Below are positions 4,817-20,075 of a stretch of 22,277 bases of DNA, one piece after another. The stretch lies in contig CAZDEY010000007.1 in NCBI GenBank assembly GCA_964504565.1, positions 16,874 through 39,150 of the forward strand, given 5' to 3'. Under the pieces are notes generated by a model, which worked only from the letters and a program-made list of their open reading frames with translations, ran no database searches and was not told the origin of the DNA. How positions within the stretch are numbered: the stretch's first letter is position 1; each line of letters starts with the position of its first letter. Position numbers and translations under genes: made by a program. The DNA comes from an uncultured Roseivirgaceae bacterium. GTDB taxonomy: Bacteria; Bacteroidota; Bacteroidia; Cytophagales; Cyclobacteriaceae.

Positions 4817-4842
4817 GCAGTTAATTTTTTTATCGAATATTG

Positions 4843-4890
4843 AAAGCCCAAGGTTAAATCGCATAAATGAATTGACCTTGGGCTTTCTAT
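4843..4890 (+). terminator. Candidate terminator hairpin (12-bp stem AAAGCCCAAGGT / ACCTTGGGCTTT, large loop, then CTATTTT)
   Basis: Perfect 12-bp inverted repeat 27 bp after the LOG stop codon. The large 20-nt loop lowers confidence. Confidence 0.45.
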
Positions 4891-4901
4891 TTTAGGTACA
4901 T

Positions 4902-5378
4902 ATGGGAAAGGAAAGGAAGATTAAAAGTCAACGTAAGGAAAGCTGGACTGCGCTGCGTGTAGAAGTTGCCAAGTCAATTCAGGCTAATCAATTAGATGTG
5001 ACTGAGGTATCTACAGGATTTAGTCAAATCATTGAAAGAATTATAGCTGAATCTACTATAAACCACGAGATTTTATCAAATAACTTAGCTTTCAGACTAA
5101 AAAATTCACACGTGCACTTTACGATATTTTTTACAAATATAACTGTTAGAGCCTATCTAGTCTTGGATGAAATAGTCAATGAGCAGAATAAATATTGGTT
5201 GTATGAGGGTACAGTTGGAGCCATGCAAGAACTTTTGAATAATGTATATTATGGAAAGTTTGTTTTAACTTCTAAGAAATATGACTGGGTACTGGGGTTT
5301 GACCAGCATGATATACTCATAGCAAAAGGAAGTATAGTTTCCAGAGTTGAGAGGCATAGGACTCAATTAGAATTATAG
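4902..5378 (+). CDS. Hypothetical protein (158 aa), AT-rich orphan ORF
   Basis: Clean ORF with an ATG and a basic N-terminus, but no recognisable motif. Its composition is markedly more AT-rich than the flanking LOG and regulator genes. Confidence 0.4.
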   Translation: MGKERKIKSQRKESWTALRVEVAKSIQANQLDVTEVSTGFSQIIERIIAESTINHEILSNNLAFRLKNSHVHFTIFFTNITVRAYLVLDEIVNEQNKYWLYEGTVGAMQELLNNVYYGKFVLTSKKYDWVLGFDQHDILIAKGSIVSRVERHRTQLEL

Positions 5379-5498: not shown

Positions 5499-6332
5499 CT
5501 AATTCCCCTTCTCCAGCTGATCCAGTCTACTCTTAATCTGACTAAGTTCCCGTTCCAGGCTTAGCATTTTGTGTTCCAGTAAGGTGGGTGGCTGTAATTG
5601 CGTGCTCCAAATTCCTTTTACTTCCCATACTTCCAGTACTTCCTCCAGAGCTAATTGAGTATTCTCATCGCTTGGCCGGTCAGTTAACAATAATAAGTGA
5701 GTGGTTGAAGTGCCCTCGTAACGGCGGGTTATTATTTGCTTGGCAGTTACTATAACTAATAGCTGGCCGGGTTCAAATTTTCCAATTTTGCTCAGGTCAG
5801 TAGGAATACAGGCTAATATATCGCTCTCGTGCAAGCCGCCACTCTCCGTAAGCATTTCGGTGCCTACGTGCTCAAACGCCCTGAACTTATCGCCCTCTAA
5901 AGTAGGAACGTGTAGGTGCGGTAGTCTGGTTATAAAATCTTTATTCTGAAGATTAATTAAATACTCGGTTCTATCGCCCTTTCGTATCAGGGGAATGCCC
6001 TGGTAGGTACTAACCGATTTAGAAGAAAATTGCACTTGCTCATTTTTTGAGCTTTTGCCTAGGGCCGGAGGTAACTTGGTTGGGTCAAAGTCGCCCTTAA
6101 ATATATCGAAGCTGTACAGCTCGTTAACGCTTAATTCCTTTCTCAAAAGGGCATCGGCCGATATGCCAAAATGCTGAGCAATCGCTATAATCGTATCAAT
6201 TTTAGGCTCCGATCTGCCCTCTTCATACGCTCCAACGCTAGGTCTTGCTAAATTAAACAATTCGGCAAACTGAGCTTGTGATAGCTTTTTTACCGCCCTA
6301 ATGCGTTTAATGTTCTTTCCTATATACGACAT
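5499..6332 (-). CDS. XRE-family HTH transcriptional regulator with a C-terminal LexA/cI-like (peptidase S24-like) domain and a terminal leucine-zipper-like helix
   Basis: The N-terminal 65 aa are a textbook HTH_XRE (IKRIRAVKKLSQAQFAEL...GRSEPKIDTIIAIAQHFGISADALL). The C-terminal region aligns by eye to the S24 fold, with GTEM where GDSM is expected and a conserved Lys in VIVTAKQI. Confidence 0.65.
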   Translation of the reverse strand: MSYIGKNIKRIRAVKKLSQAQFAELFNLARPSVGAYEEGRSEPKIDTIIAIAQHFGISADALLRKELSVNELYSFDIFKGDFDPTKLPPALGKSSKNEQVQFSSKSVSTYQGIPLIRKGDRTEYLINLQNKDFITRLPHLHVPTLEGDKFRAFEHVGTEMLTESGGLHESDILACIPTDLSKIGKFEPGQLLVIVTAKQIITRRYEGTSTTHLLLLTDRPSDENTQLALEEVLEVWEVKGIWSTQLQPPTLLEHKMLSLERELSQIKSRLDQLEKGN

Positions 6333-6523
6333 GAAAATAAAATTCTATTATTTTGAGCATATCTATTGACATGAGCAAAAACTTTTCCTATATTTATCTC
6401 AAGCTTTTAGCAAAAACAAATTTTAAGGCATGAAAGACAAAATTTGTTACAAAGCTATAAGTGAAAATAATGTAGAATCTCTTATTTTTAGCAAAGTATG
6501 AAAAATCTAAAACTTTTAACCAA
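6333..6523. promoter_or_regulatory. AT-rich divergent promoter region between the XRE regulator (minus strand) and the yjfI-like/pspA-like genes (plus strand)
   Basis: A 190-bp strongly AT-rich non-coding interval between divergently oriented genes; no individual promoter element is confidently assigned. Confidence 0.4.
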
Positions 6524-6919
6524 ATGAATTGCTATTTCGATACCGTACAGCATTTCTTATTGGAGCTTGGCTGTGAAATAAGATTGGCAAATGAAGCAGA
6601 TGGACTATTTGTAGTGGATAATGAGGAGCGGGGCTTGCGGAATTTAGTTATTGGCTGCGCCGATCCAATCTTAATACTGGAACAGTTCATCTTCGAAATA
6701 AGTGAAGACCGACCAGAGGTATATAAAAGCCTTCTGGTAAAGAACCGCGACATGATTGCGGGTGCCTTTGTACTGGACGATACCGGCTCGCGCGTGCTGT
6801 TCCGCAATACCCTTCAGCTAGAAAACCTCGACCTGAACGAAATAGAAGGAACCTTTAACGCCCTTAGCCTAATGCTTAGCGAATACAGCGACGAGCTAAT
6901 CCGCTTCGCTAAAATGTAA
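6524..6919 (+). CDS. YjfI-like / DUF2170 (YbjN-fold) small protein, PspA-associated
   Basis: Acidic 131-aa protein immediately upstream of a 232-aa PspA-family gene. Size and position mirror the E. coli yjfI-yjfJ pair. The family assignment is from memory of that arrangement and was not computed. Confidence 0.5.
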   Translation: MNCYFDTVQHFLLELGCEIRLANEADGLFVVDNEERGLRNLVIGCADPILILEQFIFEISEDRPEVYKSLLVKNRDMIAGAFVLDDTGSRVLFRNTLQLENLDLNEIEGTFNALSLMLSEYSDELIRFAKM

Positions 6920-6930
6920 ATTTTAAGAAC

Positions 6931-6997
6931 CAAGAGTCAGGAATCAAGAATCAAGATTTTAAGCTTGATCTCAAGACTAGAGACTCAAGACTCAAGA
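6931..6997 (+). repeat. Array of five direct TCAAGA(C/A)T repeats plus one inverted copy, ending 9 bp before the pspA-like start codon
   Basis: TCAAGA occurs at 6944, 6951, 6971, 6985 and 6992. CTTGAT (the inverted form) is at 6964. Confidence 0.8.
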
Positions 6998-7005
6998 CTA
7001 AAACC

Positions 7006-7704
7006 ATGAACATTTTCTCAAGATTATTCAAGATTGGTCAGGCCGAGGCTCATTCCGGAGTAGATAAACTGGAAGACCCGATTAAAATGACCGAACAAGG
7101 CATCCGCGATATGAAGGAAGACCTTGACAAAAGCTTACACGCCCTGGCGGAAGTAAAAGCTATGGCCATCCGTGCCAGAAACGAAGCGGAACGCCACGGC
7201 GAAGCGGCTAAAGATTATGAACATAAGGCCATACAGCTACTAAAGAAAGCACAGGGCGGCGAAATGGATTCAGCCGAAGCCGACCGTTTAGCCGGCGAAG
7301 CTTTAGCTCGTAAAGAGCAAAACCAGAAGCTGGTAAGCAACAGTAAGCAGGAGGTAGAACGCTACGAAAAAAGCGTGGCTCAGTTAGAAGCGAACGTTCG
7401 CACCATAAAGAGCAATATTGGCAAGTGGGAGAACGAGCTTAAAACCCTTAAAGCCCGCGTAAAAGTAAGCGATGCTACCAAAAACCTGAACAAGCAACTG
7501 GCGCAGATCGACAGCAGCAGTACCGTAAGTATGCTGGAGCGTATGCGCGATAAGGTTGCCCAAGAAGAAGCCTTGGCCGAAAGCTACGGTGAAATTGCCA
7601 ACGAAAGCCGCAGTGTCGACGACGAAATTGACCGCGCCTTAGAAGACAACACCACCAAAGCCAACGAAGACCTGGCCGAACTAAAGAAGAAACTTGGGAT
7701 GTAG
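7006..7704 (+). CDS. PspA/IM30 (Vipp1/ESCRT-III-like) family protein, YjfJ-like (232 aa)
   Basis: N-terminus MNIFSRLFKIGQAEAHSGVDKLEDPIKMTEQGIRDMKEDLDK follows the PspA/YjfJ pattern. The protein is entirely alpha-helical, charged and coiled-coil, and has the same length as E. coli YjfJ. Confidence 0.85.
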   Translation: MNIFSRLFKIGQAEAHSGVDKLEDPIKMTEQGIRDMKEDLDKSLHALAEVKAMAIRARNEAERHGEAAKDYEHKAIQLLKKAQGGEMDSAEADRLAGEALARKEQNQKLVSNSKQEVERYEKSVAQLEANVRTIKSNIGKWENELKTLKARVKVSDATKNLNKQLAQIDSSSTVSMLERMRDKVAQEEALAESYGEIANESRSVDDEIDRALEDNTTKANEDLAELKKKLGM

Positions 7705-7707
7705 GAC

Positions 7708-7790
7708 GGCACGAAGTGCCAACCTAATTAGAAATTAGAAATTTAAAATTAGAAATGAAGGCCTAACTGAGTCTAAGTAATTTCTAATTC
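7708..7790 (+). repeat. Post-pspA structured region: GGCAC-gaa-GTGCC hairpin, three direct AATTAGAAAT repeats and an inverted copy (TAATTTCTAATT)
   Basis: Read directly from the sequence. It may act as a terminator or attenuator, but there is no classical GC stem plus U-run. Confidence 0.5.
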
Positions 7791-7868
7791 ATAAACGGTC
7801 CGCCGTTGCGGTCATAATTTTTAATTTTTTAACCAGGCACAAGCCACCAGCCACTAAGCACCAATACT

Positions 7869-8540
7869 ATGAAAGCCCTATTTGAATTTGCCATTGCCGG
7901 CGCCAACGTAATACCCACCCTGTTGCTAATATTCATCGTGATGTATTGGCTAACAGTATTGGTTGGCGCTATCGACATGGATGCCTTCGATATTGACTTG
8001 GATGTAGATGCGGATGTGGATGCGGATGCCGGTCCGGCCGATATTGATCTGGATTTGGGTGATGGGCACTCGGAAGGTGGGTTAGAGTGGCTGAATAGCC
8101 TGCTGAGGTTTTTCAATTTGGGAAGAATACCCCTGATGATATTTTTAACCTTCTTGATACTGCCGCTTTGGTTGTTCTGTATTATAGTCAATGATTTCTT
8201 CGGTTTTCATAGCCTGTTGCCCGGCTTGTTAACACTTATTGTAGGCTTTGTGGCGTGCATGTTTGTAGCCAAAGTGCTTACCATGCCTTTTGTAAAGCTT
8301 TTCGATAAGCTGGACGAAGACAAAAACTATAGTGCTATTGGTAAAATATGTGTGTTGAGAAGCTCAATAGCTGCCGGAAGGCTAGGGCAAGCCGAAGTAA
8401 TACGGAACGGTGGAGGCGCGCCAATTATCCTGACCGTTTGTGCACCCACCGGAGTTGACATCAGCCGCGGCGAAAAGGCCTTGGTGCTAGAACACCAACC
8501 CGAGCGTAGCTGCTACCTGATAGAACCGTTCAGTTTGTAA
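7869..8540 (+). CDS. NfeD-like / YqiJ-like (DUF1449-type) inner-membrane protein with an acidic DxD repeat segment and a C-terminal OB-fold
   Basis: N-terminal TM helix, acidic repeat DIDLDVDADVDADAGPADIDLDLGDG, additional TM helices, and a C-terminal beta-rich segment (GKICVLRSSIAAGRLGQAEVIRNGGGAPIILTVCAPTGVDISRGEKALVLE) typical of NfeD OB-folds. It precedes a flotillin gene, as in yqiJK. Confidence 0.7.
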   Translation: MKALFEFAIAGANVIPTLLLIFIVMYWLTVLVGAIDMDAFDIDLDVDADVDADAGPADIDLDLGDGHSEGGLEWLNSLLRFFNLGRIPLMIFLTFLILPLWLFCIIVNDFFGFHSLLPGLLTLIVGFVACMFVAKVLTMPFVKLFDKLDEDKNYSAIGKICVLRSSIAAGRLGQAEVIRNGGGAPIILTVCAPTGVDISRGEKALVLEHQPERSCYLIEPFSL

Positions 8541-8569
8541 TAACTGTCGCTTATATCAGAACCTGACCA

Positions 8570-8745
8570 ACACACCGCGCGGCGGCCGACCCTACCCCTC
8601 TCAAGAGGGGACAGAACTGAACCTGCAATATTTAAGTCGTAAACCTATGACCTAATTATAAAATACGGAAGGCTAAGCTTTGCTAATGGTTTATTGGTGA
8701 GCTTTCCCCTCTTGAGAGGGGTCGGCGTAGCCGGGGGTGTGTGGC
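8570..8745. repeat. GC-rich REP/MITE-like element, copy 1. It is an inverted pair: ACACACCGCGCGGCGGCCGACCCTACCCCTCTCAAGAGGGG ... CCCCTCTTGAGAGGGGTCGGCGTAGCCGGGGGTGTGTGG
   Basis: The two arms are reverse complements of each other (shared cacacac / gccgaccc / cccctctcaagagggg blocks). Each arm ends in the self-complementary hairpin CCCCTCT-ca-AGAGGGG. A second copy of the family lies at 12053..12168. Confidence 0.8.
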
Positions 8746-8929
8746 CCGTTAGCCAAATTGAACAGTCAGTAATAATATAAATAATAAATAAAAATCGAAC
8801 CAAACTCTGTTCCCTCTCCTCCGAGGAGAGGGCTAGGGTGAGGTAGAACCCTTTCTTCGCCCTTAACCAACAGCCTTTAGGCTGTGCGCAGGAAAGGAAA
8901 AATGTATCACCTTAAATCATTTATCTATT

Positions 8930-11077
8930 ATGGAAAGTATAGCAGGAAATAGCTTATTGGTAGGAGGATTAATCCTCCTGGTAGTGGCTTTTGCCTTCCT
9001 GATTTTCTTGGCTAAGCTATATAGAAAATCAGAGCAGGGCCAGGCACTGGTAGTTACCGGTGTAGGCGGACCCAAAGTATCGTTTAGCGGCACCACCGTA
9101 ATTCCGGTCTTTCAACGATTGGAGATTATGGACATCACGGTTAAAACCATCATGATTAACCGGATGGGCAAAGAAGGCCTTATTTGCCGCGATAATATGC
9201 GGGCCGACATTAAAGTAACCTTCTTCGTTAGGGTAAACCAAACCAAGGAAGATGTAATGAATGTAGCCCAAAGCATTGGTTGCGATCGCGCTTCCGATCC
9301 GGCTCAGTTAGAACTTCTTTTTGATGCCAAATTCTCCGAAGCCCTAAAAACCGTAGGTAAGCGCTTCGACTTTGTAGACCTCTACACCAACCGCGTGGAG
9401 TTTAAAGACGAAATTTTGCAAATAATCGGTACCGACCTGAACGGTTATATACTGGATGACTGCGCTATTGACTATCTGGAGCAAACCCCGCTGGAGTTCC
9501 TGAATGAAAGTAATATTCTTGACTCAGAAGGTATCAAGAAGATTATTGACCTGACCGCTAAGCAGAAAATGGAGGCCAACTTCATTGAACGCGAAAAGGA
9601 AAAAACGCTGAAGAAGCAGGATGTTGAAGCGAGAGAAACAGTATTGCAGTTAGAGCGTCAGCAGATTGAAAGCGAAGAAAAGCAGCGCCGCGAAGTGGCC
9701 AGCGTACGAGCCCGCGAACGAGCCGAAGCTGAAAAGATTGAGGCTGAGGAGCGTTTGAAATCGGAGAATGCCCGTATAGCTACCGATGAGCAATTGCAAA
9801 TAGCTGAGCAGAATAAAGAGCGTCAGGTGTTGGTTGCCCAGCGCAATAAAGAGAAAACCGACGCGGTAGAAATGGAGCGCGTAACCCAGGCTCGCGACCT
9901 TGAGGCTAATGAGCGGGAGCGCATAGTTTCGCTGGCGCAGATTGAAAAAGAGAAAGCCCTGGAGGTTGAGCGTCGAAATATTCAGGAGGTGATTCGTGAG
10001 CGGGTAATGGTAGAAAAAGATACCGTTGCCGAGGAGGAGCGCATTAAAGATACCCGCGCCCATGCCGAGGCAGAACGGTTGAAGAAAGTTGCCTTAATAA
10101 ACGCGGAGAAAGAAGCGCAGGAGTCGTTAGTGAAGGAAATTAAAGCGGCCGAAGCTGCCCGCGAAGCGGCCGAATTCCGGGCTCGTCAGGCGATGATTGA
10201 TGCCGAAGCTGAGCGCAAAACCGCTGATATGAAAGCCGAAAGCATTAAGATTATGGCCGATGCTGAAGCGAAGAAGGCCGCCGCTTTAGGTTTAAGCGAA
10301 GCTCAGGTAATGGAAGCGAAAGCTGCCGCCCTAAGCAAACAAGGTGAAGCCGAAGCTAATGTAATTGAGGAGCGGGCTGATGCCGATGCTAAAGCTATCC
10401 GCATGAAGGGCGTGGCCCAGGCTGAGGCCAATACTAAACTTGGTCAGGCTGATGCCGAAATTATTCGAGCCAAAGCCGAGGCTAAGGAAATTGAAGGCCA
10501 GATGGAAGCCCGTATTATGGAGCAGAAGTTTGCCGCCGAAGCCAAAGGTATAGAAGAAAAAGCCAAAGCCATGAGTGCGCTGGATGGCCCAGGTAAGGAA
10601 CACGAAGAGTTTAAGCTACGTCTGGAGAAAGACAAAGCCGTAGAACTAGCCTCACTGGATATGCAACAGAGATTGGCTGAAGCCCAAGCGACCGTACTAG
10701 CCGAAGCCCTGAAAAACGCCGATATCGACATTATTGGCGGAGAAAGCATGTTCTTTCAGAACATTATGGGAGCCATGGCCAAAGGCAAAGCTATTGATGG
10801 CCTATTCAACCAGAGCGGTGCCCTGCAAGATGTAAAGAACACCTTCTTTGCACCTAATGCTAACGGCAATACCAACTTCAAAGAGCAAATGCGCCAGTTC
10901 CTCGATAAGTTCGGCTTGCAAAGCGAAGATGTACGCAACCTGAGCATTTCGGCCCTACTGCTTCGCATGATGCAAAGTGCCGAAACCGATCAGCAAAAAA
11001 CTGCCTTGCAAGAGCTTAACAAGCTGGCCGGCAGCATTGGCCTCGGCGACAAGCAGGTTAGTATGCTGAATTTGTAA
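8930..11077 (+). CDS. Flotillin-family SPFH/band-7 protein (YqiK/FloT-like, 715 aa) with a long E/A/K/R-rich coiled-coil flotillin domain
   Basis: N-terminal TM helix followed by an SPFH core (QALVVTGVGGPKVSFSGTTVIPVFQRLEIMDITVKTI...), then ~350 aa of EA-repeat coiled coil (AEAERLKK, AEAAREAAEFRARQAMIDAEAERK). Confidence 0.85.
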   Translation: MESIAGNSLLVGGLILLVVAFAFLIFLAKLYRKSEQGQALVVTGVGGPKVSFSGTTVIPVFQRLEIMDITVKTIMINRMGKEGLICRDNMRADIKVTFFVRVNQTKEDVMNVAQSIGCDRASDPAQLELLFDAKFSEALKTVGKRFDFVDLYTNRVEFKDEILQIIGTDLNGYILDDCAIDYLEQTPLEFLNESNILDSEGIKKIIDLTAKQKMEANFIEREKEKTLKKQDVEARETVLQLERQQIESEEKQRREVASVRARERAEAEKIEAEERLKSENARIATDEQLQIAEQNKERQVLVAQRNKEKTDAVEMERVTQARDLEANERERIVSLAQIEKEKALEVERRNIQEVIRERVMVEKDTVAEEERIKDTRAHAEAERLKKVALINAEKEAQESLVKEIKAAEAAREAAEFRARQAMIDAEAERKTADMKAESIKIMADAEAKKAAALGLSEAQVMEAKAAALSKQGEAEANVIEERADADAKAIRMKGVAQAEANTKLGQADAEIIRAKAEAKEIEGQMEARIMEQKFAAEAKGIEEKAKAMSALDGPGKEHEEFKLRLEKDKAVELASLDMQQRLAEAQATVLAEALKNADIDIIGGESMFFQNIMGAMAKGKAIDGLFNQSGALQDVKNTFFAPNANGNTNFKEQMRQFLDKFGLQSEDVRNLSISALLLRMMQSAETDQQKTALQELNKLAGSIGLGDKQVSMLNL

Positions 11078-11093
11078 AATTACCCCCGCCAGC

Positions 11094-11121
11094 TTAGCTA
11101 CGGGTTTAAACCCGTAGCTAA
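11094..11121. other. Perfect 14/14-bp palindrome TTAGCTACGGGTTT|AAACCCGTAGCTAA, located 17 bp after the flotillin stop codon
   Basis: Read from the sequence. There is no following U-run, so it could be a terminator variant or an operator. Confidence 0.6.
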
Positions 11122-11147
11122 CCAGTTGAGGCTAAACCCTTAGAAAG

Positions 11148-11651
11148 ATGAAAACTACTTACACCGAAAGCAGCCGCATAAAAGCTAAACCCGCTTACTG
11201 GATAGTTGGAATTGCCTTAGTCTTAGGTTTAGGCTTGCCGTTGGTAACCTCAGGTAGTGAGTGGAATGAGAAAGAAATAACGGGTTTAGCTATTTGCGCT
11301 GCGGTGATAGTTCCTATTTGTCTCTGGATTATGTACTGTCGTCTGGTAGTAAAATTGAGCCAGGCTGGTATACACTATCAGTTCAAGGGTATGCAATTGA
11401 AACCGCGATTTGTTCGCTGGCAGCAATTAGAATGCTGGAAAATAAGACCGGTAAGTGCCTTCGGTGAATTTGGCGGTTGGGGCTTGCGAACCAATTTCCA
11501 TAGTTGGGGCTACATGACCGGTACTCCTTATGCCTTAGAGCTAAATTACAAAGATGGGAAGGTAAGGGTTATCAGTATTAAACATCCTGCCAAGGTAAGG
11601 CAATGGCTTGAAACCAACAACCTAAGCCCCATGAATGCAGCCGAAAGCTAA
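11148..11651 (+). CDS. Membrane protein (2 TM helices plus a C-terminal ~90-aa beta-rich cytoplasmic domain, possibly a bacterial PH-like domain)
   Basis: Two hydrophobic helices (IVGIALVLGLGLPLV, LAICAAVIVPICLWIMY) are followed by a W/G-rich soluble domain. The PH-like assignment is a guess from the architecture. Confidence 0.5.
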   Translation: MKTTYTESSRIKAKPAYWIVGIALVLGLGLPLVTSGSEWNEKEITGLAICAAVIVPICLWIMYCRLVVKLSQAGIHYQFKGMQLKPRFVRWQQLECWKIRPVSAFGEFGGWGLRTNFHSWGYMTGTPYALELNYKDGKVRVISIKHPAKVRQWLETNNLSPMNAAES

Positions 11652-11681
11652 ATAAAAGAACCTCTAAATTTTTTAACCAAT

Positions 11682-11999
11682 ATGACACTTTTAATGACCA
11701 TACTTTTGCTGGCCTCCGCCGGGTTAACCGGCTGGGTAGGCTGGCAGCTTAGAGCTAATAATCGCCTGGAGTGGTTACTGGGCTATAGCCCAACCGCCGT
11801 TCGCGATAGAAGCGGACTGGCTCGCTGGGCCGGGGGCGTACTATTTGTACTAGCTTTAGTTGAAATTGCCAGCGCCGCCGGTTTATGGGTATGGCCCGTA
11901 ACTTTGGCCGGACTAATCTGCGCCGCTCTACACTGTCTAGGTATTATCATCCTGGCCTTAGGCTCTACACAATACTCAAAAACGGAGGAAACCTTTTGA
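11682..11999 (+). CDS. Small membrane protein (105 aa, 3 predicted TM helices; DUF3784-like, family assignment tentative)
   Basis: Three hydrophobic segments separated by short loops. The start codon is 30 bp after the preceding gene. Confidence 0.45.
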   Translation: MTLLMTILLLASAGLTGWVGWQLRANNRLEWLLGYSPTAVRDRSGLARWAGGVLFVLALVEIASAAGLWVWPVTLAGLICAALHCLGIIILALGSTQYSKTEETF

Positions 12000-12052
12000 T
12001 GGAGAGAATGGAGTTGAAGATGGAAAGGCTATGCAAAATAGGAAACGGGCCT

Positions 12053-12168
12053 ACACACCGCGCGACGGTCGCCCCAGCATCGCTACGCTCGCTACCCCTC
12101 TCAAGAGGGGAATTTCTGCCACTGTCCCTTTTGAGGGGGGCAACTAACGAAGTGAGCGGGGTGTGTCA
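12053..12168. repeat. GC-rich REP/MITE-like element, copy 2. Arms: ACACACCGCGCGACGGTCGCCCC...CTACCCCTCTCAAGAGGGG and, inverted, CCCTTTTGAGGGGGG...GCGGGGTGTGTCAG
   Basis: Shares the ACACACCGCGCG head and the CCCCTCTCAAGAGGGG hairpin with 8570..8745. It is more degenerate and has a shorter inter-arm spacer. Confidence 0.7.
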
Positions 12169-12254
12169 GAAGCCCTACAAGTAACCACGAATTCCAATTT
12201 GATGTAACGATTCTTCCCTCCTTTAGGAGGGACCGAGGGAGGTGAAAAATAAAA

Positions 12255-15200
12255 ATGAGCAAAAATACTATACCTACACCCGAACAACCGCAGGATAATA
12301 ATCAGCTGGAAGGAGCATCGTACCAGATTCTGCAGAAGCGTTTGCTGGATGCTGCTGGTAGTTTGCGCGAGAAGCTGGCCGGGCTCAATGGTAGCCGTAA
12401 AGATATTTTCGGGGCGATAGAAACCAAATTGCTGGCCACCGAGCGCGTAAGTACTGAACACAACTGTGTAGCTCAGGATATGAGTCCGGTGGGCAAGAGG
12501 CCCGTGGGCGAAAGCTTTATCTTCGGCTACAACGTACAGATGGGCCTAAAGCAGGAAATGGATCTGGCCGATGTGTTTAGTATTTACCGCTACGAGGAAA
12601 AGAGCTTCCACCCGGAAACGCTGGATATACTAAAGCAGGGAAGTTTTGCCGAGGACTTCAAAAATCTGTATAAATACTATAAAGAAACCCGTTTTGTAAA
12701 GTTTGTCAAGCAAGGCGTTCACCTGCATATGGTGTTTCGCGTTGGCAAAAGCGAGGGCGATATAAAAACCTTTAAGTGGTTGCTGGAAGGCGATAGCCTA
12801 AAGTATATCGACAACCGGAGTGAACACGAAATTAAAACCCCGGCCCAACAAGAATTTCGCTGGAAAAAAACGACCCGCGATCAGCAGCGCGCCGGCCGCT
12901 TCCCGCACATCAGTATTGAAGATCGGGTGTTTGTGGAAACCCTGGGCGGCGACCTTACCATTAAAGTAGAAGACAATACCGAAAAAGGGCAGGGAATATA
13001 TACCGAACCGGTTGAGTTTCCAGACCAGACGCTGGATGATGCCGAGGTGTTCTACGCCTTACTGGATAACCTCACGGTACTTAAAGTAAGGCCGTATAAC
13101 GAGAAGGAGTGGCGCTATTTTGTCTATAATGCCAAGCTTCAGCAGGTAAAACGTATCGATAGCCTTGGCCAAGCAGCACTCTTATTGCCCGACGATCAGG
13201 GCTTGCTATTCCCGGATGGCTACTATCTGCAAACCGGTGAGTATAAGCGCTTCGATATGCCGGAAGGGAAAGCCATGCGCTTCGAAAAGCGAATTATCAG
13301 CCCCAATGGCGAAGACGTGCTGTTTGTATTCTTTAATGCAGCCGAAGGCTTGTATTTACTTCTGCCCTATAACCTGATTGAGCAGGAAATCGATACGCCA
13401 ATTTATTGCCACGGCTACTCTATTTTCGAGAACGGCGAAATGCTCTTCTTCCGCGGCGATGATGAGCCCACCCGCCACCATACCATCCAGATTTGGCAGA
13501 CTCCCTACGTTGGGCCAAACTACCAGATGGGGCAGGCTAACGACAGTTACTTATTCAAAATTGGTAATAAAGAAGTGGTGCGCGCTATGGCCGAGGCTAA
13601 TCAGCTTATTGGCCTGCTGGAAAAAGAAGATAATTATGCCGGCCTGTACCACGACCTGATAAAATCAGCCACCGCCCTATTAGACCACTACCACTGGCTA
13701 GGCCATGCCGAAGCTTATGAGCTGGAAACTCCGCTAAGGTTGGTTAGGCAAACGGCCAATTCGGCGCTGGATGAATTTGAAAAAGTACGCAGCATAAAGA
13801 AAAGCACCGAGGAGCAAACGGGCAAAACCTTAAGCGAGGCCGACGGACTATTGCGCAACATTAAGCGCGAACGACCGCGCCACATCCTGGATTTTGTAGC
13901 CCAGCTTAACGCGTTGCGTAGGCTTAGAGGTGAAGTTATATCGCTGAAAGACTTGCGCTACGTACAGCTTGCGCCGGTAGAAGGTGCCGAGCAGTTGCTA
14001 AAAGATGCTGCCGATAGCGTAGCCCGGGCCTGCGTACGTTTTCTACTTCAGGATGATGCCCTGCAGCCCTACCAACAAAAACTAGATGAACTTGGACAGC
14101 AGGTAGAAAAGGCACCAAAAGTAGCCGAACTAAATGCCTTGCTGGAAGAGGCCGATACCCTGGCCGGCGAACTGGAAATGCTGTTGGAGGTAGTGGGTAA
14201 TCTAAAAATTGAAGATGCTACCCAGACCACGCAGATAATTGATAACGTTTCGGCTTTGTACGCCGGACTGAACGCCACGCGTACCCGCCTGCGCAACCGC
14301 AAAAAAGAACTGCAGCGCGCGGAAGGGGCCGCTGAATTCTCGGCGCAGCTAAAATTGGTTGACCAGAGCGTAATAAACTACCTGGATGTGTGCGATACGC
14401 CGGCCAAGGTAGAAGAATACCTGACCCGCGTAATGGTGCAGCTGGAAGAGTTAGAAGGTAAGTTTTCGGAGTTTGATGAGTTTCTGGATAAGCTGGCAAC
14501 CAAGCGCGAGGAGGTATATGCTGCTTTCGAGAACAAAAAGGTTGCCCTGACCGAAGCCCGAAACAAACGTGCGGTAACGCTGCATGGCGCCGGTGAGCGT
14601 ATTATTAGCGCAGTAAAAAGCCGTTTAGGTAGGTTTAAAGAGGTTAACGAAATTAATGGCTACCTAGCGGGTGACCTGATGGTGGAAAAGCTGCGTGGCA
14701 TTATTGCCGATCTGCAGGAGTTAGGCGATACCGTAAAATCCGACGACCTAAAGAGCCAGTTACAGGCTCTGCGCGATGAGAGCTTGCGCCAGCTTAAGGA
14801 TAGAAAGGAACTTTATGCCGATGGCGAAAACACTATTAAGTTCGGAAAGTGGATATTTAGTGTAAATAAGCAGCCACTGGAGCTGACCACACTTCTGCGC
14901 CCTGATGGTTGGTACTACCACCTGACCGGTACGGCCTATTTTGAAAAGATAAAAGCCGATAGCCTGAAGGGTACCGAAGCTGTGTGGCAGCAAAATCTGG
15001 TATCGGAAAACGAGCAGGTATACCGGGCGGAATACTTAGCGTATCAATTCCTGAAATCGGTGCGGGAAGGTAAGCTGGAAACCAGCCTGACCGAATTGCA
15101 GCAATTTACTATCGATGAACTGTTAACTGCTGTGCAAAAGTTCTCGGCCGGCCGCTTCGATGAGGGTTACGTAAAGGGCGTGCACGATAAAGATGCCGCG

Positions 15201-17207
15201 CGTTTGCTTACCCACTTACTGACAATGGAAAGTACCGTGGGCTTGCTTAAATACGCCCCACCAACCCGTACGCTGGCGCATATTGGCTGGCTGGTGTTTA
15301 TGCCGAAATCTACGCGCGAAGCGCTGGAAGGGCAACTGACCGGTGCCGGTGAAATCTTGAAGGTATTCCCATCGGCAAACGGCTTTGCGTCGGTGCGCAA
15401 TCAGTTAGAAAAGCACTTGGTACAGTTTGCCGAGGAAACCGAACTGTTCTTAGCTGAAGAAGCCTTTGAGGCCGCCCAGTACTTATTTGAAGCCCTAAGT
15501 GGAGCCGGATTTGTAGTAGATAACTTTGCTATGCAGCTAAAAGAACAGTTTTTAGCTGACTTGAAGAAGAACGGTGGCCTAAACGCTTTCGAAAGCAGTA
15601 TTAAAAAGCTGCAGGACCAGCCCGCCGCAGCCTATAGCTTGCTAAGGCAATGGGCCGGGGCCTGGCTAGAGAGCGCAGAGGCAGAGAATTTCTGGCTCGA
15701 TGAACTGGCCAGTTTGCTATGGCCGGAACTTCGCGATACGCTACAGAATGCGGTAAATGTCAACTTGAGCGATACCATTCAGGAAATGGCCGGTGAGCAC
15801 GCGCTTATTCGGGAGCAACAATATAAGCTGGGCTATCACCAATTCTGGCACAAGCTACAGCAACACGAAAGTACGACGGTGCCACTGTATCGTCAGCTAA
15901 CCCAGGCTAAAAAGCTACTGATAAAAGAAGGGGCAGAAAACCTTCGTCTGGAAGAATTTAAGCCGCGCGTAATGAGTTCTTTCGTACGGAATAAGCTGAT
16001 AGATGAGGTTTACCTGCCACTAATCGGCGCTAACCTGGCCAAGCAAATAGGTACCGCCGGCGATACCAGCCGCGTTGACCGCCAGGGTATGCTTTTGCTG
16101 ATTTCGCCTCCGGGTTACGGTAAAACCACTTTAATGGAATACCTGGCTGATCGCCTGGGGCTTATCTTCATGAAGATTAACGGCCCGGCCATTGGCCACG
16201 ATATTACCTCTATTGACCCGAGCGAAGCTAAAAATGCCGGTGCGCGTCAAGAGTTAGAAAAGCTTAACCTAAGCTTTGAAATGGGCGACAACGTGATGAT
16301 TTATCTGGATGATATTCAGCACTGTAATCCGGAGTTTCTGCAGAAGTTTATCAGCTTGTGCGATGGGCAGCGAAAAATAGAAGGTATCTGGAAGGGTAGA
16401 AGCAAGACTTATGACTTCAGAGGTCGCCGCGTGGCGGTAGTAATGGCGGGTAACCCCTATACCGAAAGCGGCGAAAAATTCCGTATACCGGATATGCTGG
16501 CCAACCGAGCCGACATTTACAACCTAGGCGACATTCTGGGCGATAGCGATACCGCCTTCAAACTTAGTTATTTGGAAAACAGCTTTACGGCTAACCCGGC
16601 TGTGGCGCGCATTGCCACTAAAAGCCATAAAGATGCCGTAGCCATAATCAAAATGGCAATGCACGGCGAAAACCAGGCCGAAACTCCGCAGTGGGAAGCC
16701 AATCACGACCCTAGCGAAATTAGCGAGGCCGTTAGCGTACTAAAGAAGTTGCTGAAAATTCGCGATGTGGTGCTGCGCGTGAACGAGGAATATATTCATT
16801 CGGCCGGCCAGGCCGATGAATACCGTACCGAACCCGCCTTTAAGCTGCAGGGTAGCTACCGAAATATGAATAAGTTGGGTGAAAAAGTAGCCCCGGTTAT
16901 GAATGAGCAGGAACTTGATACCTTAATTCTAAGCCACTACGAAAGCGAGGCGCAGACCTTAACCACCGGTGCTGAAGCCAACTTGCTCAAGTTTAAAGAC
17001 ATGATGAACTGGCTGAGCCAGGAGGAAAAGGAACGTTGGGCCGATATAAAAGCCATTTTTAAGAAGCAGCAGCAACTAAAAGGCCTGGGCGGCAACCATA
17101 TGGCACAGCTTATGGCGCAGGTAGAAAATGTAAGCCACGCGCTGTACGGCATAAGAGCCGCACTGGCAGCGGGTTCCAAGTTGAACGGCGTGGAGAAGGA
17201 AAAATAG
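12255..17207 (+). CDS. Giant (1650 aa) protein with a C-terminal MoxR/AAA_5-class AAA+ ATPase core and a ~1250-aa beta-rich plus coiled-coil N-terminal region; function unknown
   Basis: Walker A LLISPPGYGKTTLMEYLA is at nt ~16113. The Walker-B/AAA_5 box VMIYLDDIQHCNPEFLQKFISLCDG is at nt ~16293. The sensor-1 element VAVVMAGNPY is present, as is the Arg-finger-like DMLANRADIYNLGD; these are the conserved signatures of MoxR/McrB/dynein-type AAA_5 modules. N-terminal residues ~130-560 show repeated beta-strand blocks (VLKVRPYNEKEWRYFVYN, VLFVFFNAAEGLYLLLPYNL, YSIFENGEMLFFRGDDE) that suggest a propeller-like domain. Residues ~780-1000 are coiled-coil. The ORF is uninterrupted. Confidence 0.7.
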   Translation: MSKNTIPTPEQPQDNNQLEGASYQILQKRLLDAAGSLREKLAGLNGSRKDIFGAIETKLLATERVSTEHNCVAQDMSPVGKRPVGESFIFGYNVQMGLKQEMDLADVFSIYRYEEKSFHPETLDILKQGSFAEDFKNLYKYYKETRFVKFVKQGVHLHMVFRVGKSEGDIKTFKWLLEGDSLKYIDNRSEHEIKTPAQQEFRWKKTTRDQQRAGRFPHISIEDRVFVETLGGDLTIKVEDNTEKGQGIYTEPVEFPDQTLDDAEVFYALLDNLTVLKVRPYNEKEWRYFVYNAKLQQVKRIDSLGQAALLLPDDQGLLFPDGYYLQTGEYKRFDMPEGKAMRFEKRIISPNGEDVLFVFFNAAEGLYLLLPYNLIEQEIDTPIYCHGYSIFENGEMLFFRGDDEPTRHHTIQIWQTPYVGPNYQMGQANDSYLFKIGNKEVVRAMAEANQLIGLLEKEDNYAGLYHDLIKSATALLDHYHWLGHAEAYELETPLRLVRQTANSALDEFEKVRSIKKSTEEQTGKTLSEADGLLRNIKRERPRHILDFVAQLNALRRLRGEVISLKDLRYVQLAPVEGAEQLLKDAADSVARACVRFLLQDDALQPYQQKLDELGQQVEKAPKVAELNALLEEADTLAGELEMLLEVVGNLKIEDATQTTQIIDNVSALYAGLNATRTRLRNRKKELQRAEGAAEFSAQLKLVDQSVINYLDVCDTPAKVEEYLTRVMVQLEELEGKFSEFDEFLDKLATKREEVYAAFENKKVALTEARNKRAVTLHGAGERIISAVKSRLGRFKEVNEINGYLAGDLMVEKLRGIIADLQELGDTVKSDDLKSQLQALRDESLRQLKDRKELYADGENTIKFGKWIFSVNKQPLELTTLLRPDGWYYHLTGTAYFEKIKADSLKGTEAVWQQNLVSENEQVYRAEYLAYQFLKSVREGKLETSLTELQQFTIDELLTAVQKFSAGRFDEGYVKGVHDKDAARLLTHLLTMESTVGLLKYAPPTRTLAHIGWLVFMPKSTREALEGQLTGAGEILKVFPSANGFASVRNQLEKHLVQFAEETELFLAEEAFEAAQYLFEALSGAGFVVDNFAMQLKEQFLADLKKNGGLNAFESSIKKLQDQPAAAYSLLRQWAGAWLESAEAENFWLDELASLLWPELRDTLQNAVNVNLSDTIQEMAGEHALIREQQYKLGYHQFWHKLQQHESTTVPLYRQLTQAKKLLIKEGAENLRLEEFKPRVMSSFVRNKLIDEVYLPLIGANLAKQIGTAGDTSRVDRQGMLLLISPPGYGKTTLMEYLADRLGLIFMKINGPAIGHDITSIDPSEAKNAGARQELEKLNLSFEMGDNVMIYLDDIQHCNPEFLQKFISLCDGQRKIEGIWKGRSKTYDFRGRRVAVVMAGNPYTESGEKFRIPDMLANRADIYNLGDILGDSDTAFKLSYLENSFTANPAVARIATKSHKDAVAIIKMAMHGENQAETPQWEANHDPSEISEAVSVLKKLLKIRDVVLRVNEEYIHSAGQADEYRTEPAFKLQGSYRNMNKLGEKVAPVMNEQELDTLILSHYESEAQTLTTGAEANLLKFKDMMNWLSQEEKERWADIKAIFKKQQQLKGLGGNHMAQLMAQVENVSHALYGIRAALAAGSKLNGVEKEK

Positions 17208-17214
17208 TAACTAG

Positions 17215-17694
17215 ATGAAACATTTGATTGAGTTTGACGCTGGGAAGCTTCTCCCGTTTCATTTTATTTTGGCGGGTACAATCCTCCTATTCTTTGGTGT
17301 AGTTGCCTTACTATATAGCCCCTTTGCCGGAATATTGTTTGGCTTATTAGGCTTACTTATACTTACCGCAAAAAGGGGGGTAGATATTGATTTTGCGAAA
17401 AAGATTTATCGGGAATATCACTCTTTTTATTGGATTAAAACTGGCAAGTGGTCGCCTTTTAATTCAGTGGTTAAGCTGTACATAAACCCGGTTAAGATGA
17501 GTCAGCGAATGAGCAATTTGGCTTCAAGTAGCACTATTCATAGTAATGAGTACAAGGCTTACTTGAAATTCAATAATGAAGACAAAGTATATTTGTTGTC
17601 AGGTAAAAAAATAAAAGTTTTAGAGGAAAAATTAACTCCCCTGGCAGCTAGCTTGGGTTTGAGCATAACTGATAATTCTAAGCTGTTTAGTTAA
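17215..17694 (+). CDS. Small membrane protein (2 N-terminal TM helices plus a ~105-aa cytoplasmic domain), translationally coupled to the giant ATPase gene
   Basis: The ATG lies 7 bp after the giant-gene stop. TM segments are LPFHFILAGTILLFFGVVALLY and FAGILFGLLGLLILTA. The gene is AT-rich. Confidence 0.55.
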   Translation: MKHLIEFDAGKLLPFHFILAGTILLFFGVVALLYSPFAGILFGLLGLLILTAKRGVDIDFAKKIYREYHSFYWIKTGKWSPFNSVVKLYINPVKMSQRMSNLASSSTIHSNEYKAYLKFNNEDKVYLLSGKKIKVLEEKLTPLAASLGLSITDNSKLFS

Positions 17695-17705
17695 ATTAAA
17701 TATGT

Positions 17706-18266
17706 ATGAACAAACTCTTAACCAAATTAAAATTAGTTGACTACCATGAGTTTACTCTGCCGGTAGACAAAAATCATTTGGTAAACAAACTAAAAGCTAA
17801 TGTAGACCGAGGTAGTACTTCTAATTTTCTATCAGGGCTTGAAATGTTTTCATCCAGTAAGAACGAGTATAAAGGTGAAGTGCTGGCTGATTCATTTCAT
17901 TTAAGGAAGCGACCTAAAATGTTCGATATGAACAGTATGACATCGGCTAAAGCTAAAGGTATACTAAACGAGGTTGCCAATGGAACTCAGGTAAATTTAG
18001 AAATTAATGGCTTTACTGGGCAGTTCAAGCCATTTTTGATCCTTGTGCCTATAATTTATATAATTTTCATAATAGCCTTTTTGAGTTCGGATACTTTTCC
18101 AGCATTTGGGTTAGTGTTTATACTGGTGCATGGAGTATTTATGTTAGGAATGCCCTATATGTTCATGCGAAGAAGCATTAGCCGCCTGAAGTATGATATA
18201 GAAAGAGATATGTACTATATGGTAAGAAATGATTTATCAACTTCAACCAATAAAATTCAAGCATAA
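17706..18266 (+). CDS. Membrane protein (~108-aa N-terminal soluble domain plus 2 C-terminal TM helices)
   Basis: The start is 11 bp after the previous stop. TM segments are FKPFLILVPIIYIIFIIAFLS and FPAFGLVFILVHGVFMLGMPYMF. No recognisable motif. Confidence 0.5.
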   Translation: MNKLLTKLKLVDYHEFTLPVDKNHLVNKLKANVDRGSTSNFLSGLEMFSSSKNEYKGEVLADSFHLRKRPKMFDMNSMTSAKAKGILNEVANGTQVNLEINGFTGQFKPFLILVPIIYIIFIIAFLSSDTFPAFGLVFILVHGVFMLGMPYMFMRRSISRLKYDIERDMYYMVRNDLSTSTNKIQA

Positions 18267-18270
18267 TTTT

Positions 18271-18648
18271 ATGAATGATAAAGAGAAACTATACGAAACA
18301 ATGGGCGAATTGATATTCGCGGTGGCCAAAGCCGATGGCGTAATTCATGATTCGGAAATGACCGCTTTGCAGGAAATTCTGGACAATCACCATTGGGCTA
18401 AAAATATCAGTTGGTCGTTCAACTACGAGCGCGATAAGAATACCGACCCTAACGCAGCCTACAAAAAAGTAGTGAGCTTCTGCCACAGCTATGGCCCTAC
18501 TGCCGAATACGCTGAGTTTATTGATGTAATGCAAAAGATAGCCGAAGCCAGCGGAACCGTAGAACCGGAACAGGCCAACATCATAAACTCCTTTAGCCAC
18601 GACCTAACCGAACGCTTCCGTAAGGATGTAGAAAGTAAGTTGAATTAG
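18271..18648 (+). CDS. TerB-domain (tellurite-resistance TerB / DjlA-N-like) protein, ~125 aa
   Basis: LYETMGELIFAVAKADGVIHDSEMTALQEIL matches the TerB signature (hydrophobic-AKADG-hydrophobic...E...L). The ATG at 18271 is 4 bp after the upstream stop. The ORF-track start at 18229 overlaps the upstream gene and is rejected. Confidence 0.65.
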   Translation: MNDKEKLYETMGELIFAVAKADGVIHDSEMTALQEILDNHHWAKNISWSFNYERDKNTDPNAAYKKVVSFCHSYGPTAEYAEFIDVMQKIAEASGTVEPEQANIINSFSHDLTERFRKDVESKLN

Positions 18649-18674
18649 TAGGATGACTTTTGTATCAGCCAATC

Positions 18675-19394
18675 AGTAACTAGGTTACTCAAAGTAACCT
18701 AGTTACTTGCTCTATAACCTTACTCAAAGGTATTGGTGTTTTCCCCAATTTCGTATTCCTCATGAAATTTGATGAATTCCTCTCTTCCTCCAAACCAATC
18801 TAAAACCTTTCCTCTCTCAAGCTTAGTTGACCCATTACTGATAATGCTTCGGTAAGATGAATGTTTATAGGTTTTGAAATCTTTGCCAACTTTGTGCTTA
18901 TCAGGGTTTTTATGAATGTAGGCAATAAGTGCAGAGAGATAAGAATTATCCTTAACTTCTATTCTCTTAAACGGGGTTTCAAATAAGGCTCCGGTACGTT
19001 GGTATCGTTTATTAATGGCTCGGGTATAAGCTTGAAATAGGCTGGCAAAGCCATTGCTGACGTGCCAACCTGGTTCTCTGCCAGAAGAAGGTTTGATTTC
19101 TCTAAACTTGTCTTCATCTCGTACCCTAATTAAAATATGGAAGTGATTTTGCAACAGGCAGTAAGCGTAGGTTTCTACTAGAGTGGAAAGGTATTTTTCA
19201 TAGAGTTGGAGAAAGTATTTATAGTTCTCTTCTTCAAAAAATACCGCCTGTCCATTTATCTCTCTATTGTAAATATGATAATAGCGTTCTGGCAACAAGG
19301 GTATTTTACGTATGTTCAAGCTAGGTACGTTCATAGTTTAAGTGTAACAACTGAGGGGATTAGTAACTAGGTTACTTCAAGTAACCTAATTACT
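18675..19394. mobile_element. IS200-like / REP-associated tyrosine transposase (RAYT) unit (~720 bp): one HUH-Y1 transposase gene bounded by two near-identical 33-bp palindromes (AGTAACTAGGTTACT-nnn-AGTAACCTAGTTACT)
   Basis: The left palindrome at 18675..18707 has a perfect 15-bp stem. The right palindrome at 19362..19394 has one mismatch. They sit 13 bp beyond the stop codon and 28 bp beyond the start codon of the enclosed gene, respectively. The unit is AT-rich relative to its surroundings. Confidence 0.7.
18720..19334 (-). CDS. IS200/IS605-family-like Y1 HUH transposase / REP-associated tyrosine transposase (RAYT), 204 aa
   Basis: HUH motif in LQNHFHILIRV (H-F-H followed by hydrophobics) and a catalytic-Tyr motif in SALIAYIHKNPDKHKV (Y-I-H-x-N-P), with the spacing expected for Y1 transposases. 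The flanking palindromes are as described for the mobile element. Confidence 0.7.
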   Translation of the reverse strand: MNVPSLNIRKIPLLPERYYHIYNREINGQAVFFEEENYKYFLQLYEKYLSTLVETYAYCLLQNHFHILIRVRDEDKFREIKPSSGREPGWHVSNGFASLFQAYTRAINKRYQRTGALFETPFKRIEVKDNSYLSALIAYIHKNPDKHKVGKDFKTYKHSSYRSIISNGSTKLERGKVLDWFGGREEFIKFHEEYEIGENTNTFE

Positions 19395-19574
19395 GATTAC
19401 CCGCCGAAACGAGTTACCCTGGTACCGTATTTTAACCGTTAAAATATCAGTTCAAAATTATGGAATTGGTATATATGAAAAATTTAATTTAATCTGTCTT
19501 CGAATAAACATAGCGTCAGATACACAGTTAGTTAAGTATTGAAGTTAATTTTTTTAACCTAAATTTTTATAACT

Positions 19575-20075
19575 ATGTCAGACAAAATGTATTCCCTAAA
19601 AGATCTTTTTGAACACGAGATTAAAGATCTATATAGTGCCGAAAGCCAGCTAACCGAAGCCCTGCCGAAGATGGCCGAAAAGGCTACCCACCCCGACCTG
19701 AAACAGGCCTTTGAAAGCCACCTAATGGAAACCCGCAAACAGCAGGAACGCCTGGAAAAAATAGGGCAGACCTGTGGCTTTGATGTTAAGGGCGAGAAGT
19801 GCCAGGCTATGGAAGGCCTGATTAAAGAAGGTAAAGAAGCCTTAAAAATGAAAGGTGCCGACGAGGTGCGCGATGCCGGACTAATTGCCGCCGCCCAGCG
19901 GGTAGAACACTACGAAATGGCCGGTTACGGAACTGCTAAAAATTATGCGGAGAAGCTAGGCCTTAACGACTGTGCTAAACTACTGGGTGAAACCCTGAAT
20001 GAGGAAAAAAGTGCAGACTCTAAACTTAACAGTATAGCTGTTGGTACAGTAAACCCGGCAGCTAACCGCTTATAA
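19575..20075 (+). CDS. Ferritin-like domain protein of the YciE/YciF (DUF892) stress-protein family
   Basis: LKDLFEHEIKDLYSAESQLTEALPKMAEKATHPDLKQAFESHLMETRKQQERLEKI is the canonical YciE N-terminal pattern. The size (166 aa) fits. Confidence 0.8.
   Translation: MSDKMYSLKDLFEHEIKDLYSAESQLTEALPKMAEKATHPDLKQAFESHLMETRKQQERLEKIGQTCGFDVKGEKCQAMEGLIKEGKEALKMKGADEVRDAGLIAAAQRVEHYEMAGYGTAKNYAEKLGLNDCAKLLGETLNEEKSADSKLNSIAVGTVNPAANRL

Follow-up and report, generated by a model that had tools for sequence, protein, structure and literature searches.

The 22,277-nucleotide stretch of DNA analysed here (the window; contig CAZDEY010000007.1 of assembly GCA_964504565.1, from an uncultured Roseivirgaceae bacterium) encodes a giant AAA+ ATPase of 1650 amino acids (aa; 12255..17207, + strand). 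This ATPase is best explained as the terminal gene of a conserved operon, in which a YqiJ/NfeD-like gene and a flotillin/SPFH gene lead to the ATPase gene, and whose ATPase would remodel flotillin/PspA membrane scaffolds; the cassette of small genes immediately downstream would not be part of it. The probability of this reading is put at roughly 0.6. Its observed basis is the family membership of the ATPase, its domain layout, and a gene order that is conserved across phyla. In about one third of the loci compared, all Bacteroidota wherever named, a CesT/Tir chaperone gene followed by a PspA gene, together with a divergent LexA-like helix-turn-helix (HTH) repressor, precede this core. An earlier note on the same DNA had joined the ATPase to three small genes that follow it, encoding two proteins with two transmembrane (TM) segments each (here D1 and D2) and a TerB-domain protein. 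Its observations, the AAA+ class and the membrane-stress direction stand, whereas the composition and the novelty of the proposed system do not.

Family membership and domain layout of the ATPase

The ATPase gene is a single unbroken 4.95-kb open reading frame (ORF). Residues 37-480 (12363..13694, +), a beta-propeller-like domain packed on a helical bundle, match Pfam DUF3686 (PF12458, 'ATPase involved in DNA repair') with an E-value of 8e-185 and 615 bits against a cut-off of 25. The helical/coiled-coil middle contains DUF7902 (PF25472; aa 601-685, 14055..14309, +; E 2.3e-28, 98.6 bits against a cut-off of 26). The AAA+ core (aa 1280-1404, 16092..16466, +) is matched above cut-off by both PF00004 AAA (27.6 bits) and AAA_5 (25.5 bits, cut-off 22), the former scoring higher. 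It carries the Walker A lysine K1290, the Walker B residues D1352/D1353, a pre-sensor-1 beta-hairpin (aa 1374-1387) and the sensor-1 residue N1400, and is followed by R1418. In an alignment of 20 orthologues the motifs G1287-Y-G-K1290-T-T, D1352-D-I-Q-H-C, A1398-G-N1400-P and N1417-R1418-x-D are invariant; the window protein reads N1417-R1418-A-D at the Arg-finger region. The uninterrupted 1650-aa frame, the full set of ATPase motifs and the AAA+ class of the C-terminal region, all proposed in the earlier note, are thereby borne out. Hydropathy gives the ATPase no TM segment, unlike its conserved partners, which are membrane proteins.

A search of 5.8 billion proteins returned more than 4,291 homologues of the ATPase at E<=1e-10. 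The best 120 matches show 53-61% identity, with a query coverage of 98-100% in all but one (95%), and full-length homologues across phyla, including named members from Pontibacter, Hymenobacter and Rufibacter, are 45-61% identical. More distant full-length relatives (35-41% identity) occur in Pseudomonas, Proteus, Vibrio, Halomonas, Streptomyces, Nonomuraea and Deinococcus, and hence in Proteobacteria, Actinomycetota and Deinococcota. PDB searches by sequence, run with the protein alone and then with a profile of 20 sequences, gave only P-loop matches to p97, RuvB and Rpt and no solved relative. Judged by its sequence, the ATPase is an orthologue of a widespread, named but uncharacterised DUF3686-DUF7902-AAA+ family. 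The claim that the system was undescribed and of no nameable architecture was therefore mistaken, given the DUF3686 match and the publication of the operon by Ravi et al. (2024).

In the AlphaFold2 model of aa 1-530 (pLDDT 75, pTM 0.72), helices come after a stretch of about 25 beta-strands (aa 58-415). The best matches of this model in a Foldseek search of the PDB are all beta-propellers (DCAF1 WD40, Elp1, Sec12 and prolyl oligopeptidase) with E-values of 1e-7 to 1e-4, yet their template-modelling scores are low (0.2-0.45); with that limit, the models agree with the propeller-like N-terminus seen earlier. For the AAA+ domain, the closest solved folds are the MoxR proteins NorQ and CbbQ, whose lead over Clp/Hsp100 folds is small, and McrB ranks only 20th among the structural matches. 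Between helix 3 and strand 4, AlphaFold2 predicts the two strands of the pre-sensor-1 beta-hairpin (aa 1374-1379 and 1382-1387), and the region of a helix-2 insert (aa 1310-1327) is modelled largely without regular structure. Of the features of Vps4 and the classical AAA clade, the ATPase shows neither an MIT domain, nor the classical second region of homology, nor classical-clade proteins as its closest folds.

The C-terminus varies within the family. Bacteroidota ATPases end directly past the AAA+ lid region, and orthologues from Planctomycetota, Verrucomicrobiota and Desulfobacterota continue for another 68 to ~350 residues of low-complexity or coiled-coil sequence. Long C-termini were recorded at loci L010, L011, L019, L021, L023, L024, L031, L038, L052, L064 and L080; by eye, the ends in L010, L024 and L038 contain TPR-like repeats and that in L023 ankyrin-like ones. 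A hidden TerB or TM domain, equivalent to the downstream genes, was considered for the long tails of the Planctomycetota-Verrucomicrobiota-Chlamydiota group and Desulfobacterota and was discarded, as these tails proved low-complexity or coiled-coil.

Conservation of the gene neighbourhood

For each window protein, an iterated profile was run against the ORFs in all six frames of 80 orthologous loci from GTDB species genomes, a procedure in which highly divergent small proteins may slip past detection by hidden Markov models (HMMs). The loci span Bacteroidota, Planctomycetota, Verrucomicrobiota, Desulfobacterota, Clostridia, Kiritimatiellota and Omnitrophota (at least seven phyla). Of the 66 loci with enough flanking sequence, 63 have a flotillin-like gene as the immediate same-strand neighbour upstream of the ATPase, often with only 4-100 bp between its end and the ATPase start, and 59 have a YqiJ-like gene upstream on the same strand. 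Among 62 loci with enough flank, an upstream PspA gene on the same strand occurs in 20, a CesT gene in 19 (always accompanied by PspA), and an HTH regulator, placed divergently as in the window, in 20. Wherever loci with PspA, CesT and HTH are named, they are Bacteroidota; some are metagenome-assembled genomes (MAGs) labelled to a higher rank only. On the other side of the ATPase, clustering of the ORFs within 3.5 kb downstream produced no family common to more than five loci, and the operon is therefore taken to end with the ATPase.

RefSeq annotation offers an independent view of the same module. In Hymenobacter, a LexA-family regulator is divergent from a series consisting of a Tir chaperone, PspA, a DUF1449 protein, a hypothetical protein and the 'DNA repair ATPase'. 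The Pseudomonas fluorescens plasmid pQBR103 has PspA and, further on, glutathionylspermidine synthase, a hypothetical protein, an SPFH protein and the ATPase; Streptomyces has flotillin and the ATPase, and Deinococcus two hypothetical proteins and a 'DNA repair protein'. RefSeq names the flotillin orthologues 'flotillin family protein' or 'SPFH domain-containing protein' and, in Hymenobacter, the YqiJ orthologue 'DUF1449 family protein' and the regulator orthologue 'LexA family transcriptional regulator'.

The pQBR103 locus (L095; plasmid of P. fluorescens SBW25, 85407-104317) has an arrangement of its own. Here the YqiJ-like/SPFH/ATPase module is fused onto a PspA-polyamine operon with the order PspA, rhomboid, DUF2491, DUF350, DUF1190 and glutathionylspermidine synthase, so that this megaplasmid unites two classes of PspA operon that were treated separately by Ravi et al.

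The neighbourhood bears on two other accounts of the ATPase. Many homologues (in Pontibacter, Hymenobacter, Rufibacter, Adhaeribacter, Fulvivirga and others) bear the NCBI name 'DNA repair ATPase', in line with the text of the DUF3686 entry, and if these names were right the protein would act in DNA repair. A LexA-like divergent regulator and weak RuvB_N matches could be read the same way. However, the RuvB matches span only the P-loop and fall far under the cut-off, Pfam and PDB searches found no DNA-binding or nuclease domain in the ATPase, and its conserved neighbours are all membrane-scaffold proteins. A literature search gave no paper naming DUF3686 or PF12458. As far as sequence can tell, the repair role derives from the database name and nothing else, and we consider it very improbable. 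A 1,600-residue AAA+ protein that is flotillin-linked in 63 of 66 loci nonetheless retains the RefSeq label 'DNA repair ATPase'.

Similarly, little speaks for a McrB/MoxR-like anti-phage ATPase with a novel effector. A PADLOC-DB 2.0 scan of ten operon and cassette proteins gave nothing significant: the best match was IetA (E 9e-4), confined to the P-loop region, and D1, D2 and the TerB protein had none. Pfam detected neither a McrC-like nuclease nor a VWA-domain partner in any window protein, as the earlier note had also remarked. The full-length identity of 45-61% and the single fixed gene position across phyla are, moreover, unlike variable defence islands. A defence role, one of the two functions suggested earlier, accordingly seems highly doubtful, while the other, a membrane-associated, ATP-driven envelope-stress machine, fits the PspA/flotillin context.

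The upstream operon in the window

The earlier note considered the downstream side only. Upstream, a same-strand operon with a divergent regulator (from 5499, with genes to 11999) adds the missing context. The regulator is a 277-aa HTH_3 (Xre/LexA-like) protein transcribed divergently (5499..6332, - strand; Pfam HTH_3 E 2.7e-11). On the + strand follow a CesT/Tir-like chaperone of 131 aa (6524..6919; CesT_Tir_1 E 6.3e-55) and a 232-aa PspA/IM30 protein (7006..7704; PspA_IM30 E 1.1e-43), a member of the ESCRT-III superfamily. Next comes a YqiJ/YuaF protein (NfeD-like, DUF1449) of 223 aa (7869..8540, +) with three hydrophobic segments, corresponding to three TM segments. Its Pfam match (YqiJ_N E 0.0028) is sub-threshold, and its identity is assigned from this match and the conserved position.

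The flotillin-like SPFH/Band-7 protein (715 aa; 8930..11077, +) has one N-terminal TM segment and a long coiled coil. Its Band_7 match (E 2e-12, aa 34-173) arises when the first 257 aa are searched alone, whereas the full-length protein receives no Pfam match, because the long Glu/Ala/Lys-rich coiled coil masks the domain; the flotillin-like proteins of relatives likewise lack a Pfam match in precomputed tables. No PDB match was found for the protein.

Two clade-specific genes separate flotillin and ATPase. TMa (167 aa; 11148..11651, +) is a small protein with two hydrophobic segments, taken as two TM segments, and has homologues in L047 and L085/L086 only. TMb (105 aa; 11682..11999, +) is a DUF3784-like small membrane protein homologous (E ~1e-15) to the gene that abuts the ATPase in relatives. 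In the closest relatives its counterpart is 101-104 aa long, with a DUF3784 match on record in L082, L083, L085 and L086 and none in L084. Within 11682-12184, the gene call of the Joint Genome Institute (JGI) is a different, overlapping ORF of 99 aa (11885..12184). This deposited call is probably wrong, since homologues in the equivalent place in relatives exist for the TM ORF alone.

Between TMb and the ATPase start lies a 255-bp spacer (12000-12254). The closest relatives lack it, their two genes abutting. G+C-rich hairpins occur in the spacer, its RNA fold z-score is -2.0, and it has no Rfam match; nor did Rfam match anywhere else in the window. A scan for sigma-70 promoters and terminators stayed at background level and is uninformative for a Bacteroidota-type genome.

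The HTH regulators of relatives have a weak Peptidase_S24 match and are conserved with the PspA-containing version of the operon; in the window regulator no S24 domain was found at E<=0.01. The LexA-family label and the weak S24 match in relatives suggest induction through repressor self-cleavage. Further upstream, at 3824-5378, the window encodes a LOG/SLOG-family protein (Lysine_decarbox and LDcluster4) followed by a DUF6756 protein, a pair not kept beside the ATPase at other loci.

The downstream genes and their insertion

Three small genes follow the ATPase on the + strand after spacers of 7, 11 and 4 bp. D1 (159 aa; 17215..17694; G+C content (GC) 36.5%) has its hydrophobic block at aa 9-58, ahead of the soluble part, and D2 (186 aa; 17706..18266; GC 34.4%) has it at aa 103-154, behind a soluble part. 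The third gene encodes a small stand-alone TerB-family protein (125 aa; 18271..18648) with a weak Pfam match above the cut-off (E 6.5e-6, 26.9 versus 24.4 bits). The 4-bp spacer assumes a TerB start at 18271, which was accepted because homologues are 124-125 aa long. The mirrored topologies, the spacers and the TerB domain had all been described accurately, and on them the earlier note built one dedicated, undescribed membrane system of ATPase, two 2-TM proteins and TerB protein, acting in envelope stress or defence.

The close spacing does suggest co-transcription, and the topologies and the TerB match are genuine, but the conservation data refute the four genes as a conserved system. Among the 69 loci whose downstream sequence extends for 1.5 kb or more, none yielded a homologue of any of the three proteins, either in single-sequence iterated searches or with family HMMs built from 150, 4 and 43 sequences for D1, D2 and TerB, respectively. 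Routine absence of these genes from orthologous loci was the very observation that the earlier note had named as speaking against it. The D1 family comprises 589 representative clusters of stand-alone proteins of ~160 aa, and the 80 ATPase loci contain no member of it. For D2, a search of 5.8 billion proteins gave just three homologues, all of them solitary and in unrelated contexts. The TerB-like protein has 42 homologues besides itself, all Bacteroidota where named, and in the three contexts inspected (Catalinimonas, Flammeovirga and a MAG) it is solitary, with neighbours unrelated to the ATPase, D1 or D2. No other Ter domain (TerC, TerD, TerZ and TerA were sought) is present in the window, so that TerB, at 26.9 bits and with solitary orthologues, does not indicate a Ter cluster. 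An independent, recurrent D1-D2-TerB cassette was also considered and rejected, as no TerB or D2 locus that was examined holds its members together.

The closest relatives show what lies here ancestrally. In the three closest ATPase relatives (~60% identity; L082-L086) the order is the divergent HTH regulator, then CesT, PspA, YqiJ, flotillin, TMa in some, the DUF3784-like gene and the ATPase, and a DUF892 gene follows the ATPase after 210-265 bp. The orthologue of this DUF892 gene (E 1e-69 to 1e-82) lies in the window at 19575..20075. Since the relatives pass from ATPase to DUF892 directly, the intervening 2.4 kb (17208..19574), with D1, D2, TerB and a Y1-transposase-like gene, are low-GC DNA inserted in this lineage, which separates the ATPase from the gene that ancestrally followed it. 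The GC of this segment is 36.7% against 49.9% in the ATPase, a 13-point fall at the ATPase stop codon. With this synteny, the absence from 69 loci, the solitary homologues, the GC drop and the lack of a PADLOC match, the four-gene system has next to no credibility.

The insertion also contains a REPtron-like unit (18671..19398, - strand), in which the Y1-transposase-like gene (18720..19334) lies between two palindromic repeats of 36-37 nt (18671-18707 and 19359-19398). The gene matches Pfam Y1_Tnp below the cut-off (E 0.0024), and a 'HFHILIRV' motif is visible by eye. Four half-sites of repetitive extragenic palindromic (REP) type flank it, against 0.07 expected by chance, and the flanked gene resembles a REP-associated tyrosine transposase unit. 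The Y1-like unit is not present between ATPase and DUF892 in the closest relatives.

Owing to the 7-bp spacer, joint expression with the ATPase is very likely for D1-D2-TerB in this genome. These genes are probably co-transcribed by read-through, yet are not components of the machine. Alternatively, the inserted genes may have been recruited in this lineage to serve the flotillin/PspA/ATPase machine as accessory membrane adaptors or as modulators: the cassette is tightly coupled to the ATPase stop codon, no terminator-like site is reported in the 7-bp gap, and TerB domains and small TM proteins are, on general grounds, plausible membrane-proximal stress modules. However, the examined TerB and D2 loci show no linkage among the three genes, D2 is almost an orphan, the cassette adjoins a mobile-element-like gene, and insertion at the end of an operon is the simplest reading, which makes recruitment improbable. 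Taken as written, the proposed system would enter a catalogue as a false 'new system', while the real unit is a published operon, experimentally untouched. What the window contributes is one more orthologue and a clear case of a small operon-end insertion that mimics a gene cluster.

Proposed role of the ATPase

The preferred explanation is that of an operon ending with the ATPase. The soluble ATPase would oligomerise via its MoxR-like AAA+ domain, and its propeller, helical bundle and long coiled-coil arm could dock it on flotillin (SPFH) cages at their cytoplasmic face and, in operons that have PspA, on its polymers. ATP would be spent to assemble, remodel or recycle these membrane-scaffold assemblies in envelope stress, with the operon presumably controlled by the LexA-like repressor. 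The ATPase may thus be the functional counterpart of Vps4 on ESCRT-III, without being a Vps4 homologue. This mechanism extends the proposal of Ravi et al. by inference from the data above.

Several points weigh against this explanation. The 80 loci were not drawn at random but are the top scorers among 565 confirmed matches, and the structure models are of medium confidence (pLDDT 71-75), built on shallow 12-sequence alignments. For this experimentally uncharacterised family, the partner (flotillin, PspA or another) and the direction (assembly or disassembly) are read from the gene neighbourhood only. Given the 7-bp spacer, a local functional link of D1-D2-TerB to the ATPase is also still conceivable.

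In a bolder version of the proposal, the DUF3686 ATPase would be dedicated to the ATP-driven remodelling of both PspA polymers and flotillin (SPFH) cages. It would thereby serve bacteria as a functional analogue of Vps4, with conservation reaching from Bacteroidota as far as Proteobacteria, Actinomycetota and Deinococcota, and in this lineage it may have gained membrane/TerB accessory genes. We hold this version only tentatively and would give it less than even odds. According to a 2025 review, a Vps4-like ATPase is apparently absent in bacteria (PMC7619361). The window adds little beyond the published operon, but the family merits experiments, as it points to the turnover of bacterial SPFH/flotillin and PspA scaffolds, a question of membrane stress.

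Comparison with known systems

The combination of SPFH, NfeD-like and PspA proteins found in the window recurs in Bacillus subtilis, in PspA-YdjGHI, where the SPFH protein YdjI links PspA to the membrane, and in the FloT/YuaG-YuaF (NfeD) pair. To our knowledge, no AAA+ ATPase is associated with either of these systems. MoxR-type ATPases (NorQ, CbbQ and RavA; AAA_5) differ from the window ATPase, which has no VWA partner, carries ~1,250 extra N-terminal residues and scores equally high with the classical AAA family of Pfam. The likeness to Vps4 with ESCRT-III of archaea and eukaryotes is one of analogy only: an AAA+ ATPase is encoded near the ESCRT-III-superfamily protein PspA and membrane scaffolds. 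With the PF12458/PF25472 'DNA repair ATPase' family, the window protein is colinear over its full length and shows no substantive difference; for the function implied by the family name, the sequence analyses found no support.

The closest counterpart is the operon described by Ravi et al. (2024; mSystems, PMC11237479), a computational description in which the ATPase appears as "Betapropeller+Coiled-coil+AAA-ATPase" and the regulator as 'cHTH+Protease'. Their example from Dokdonia donghaensis (ANH61663.1), of the same phylum, has the same components in the same order as window positions 5499..17207, including the divergent cHTH. The window differs from it in two extra small TM genes between flotillin and ATPase (common to close relatives only), in the 255-bp spacer before the ATPase, and in the 2.4-kb insertion after it.

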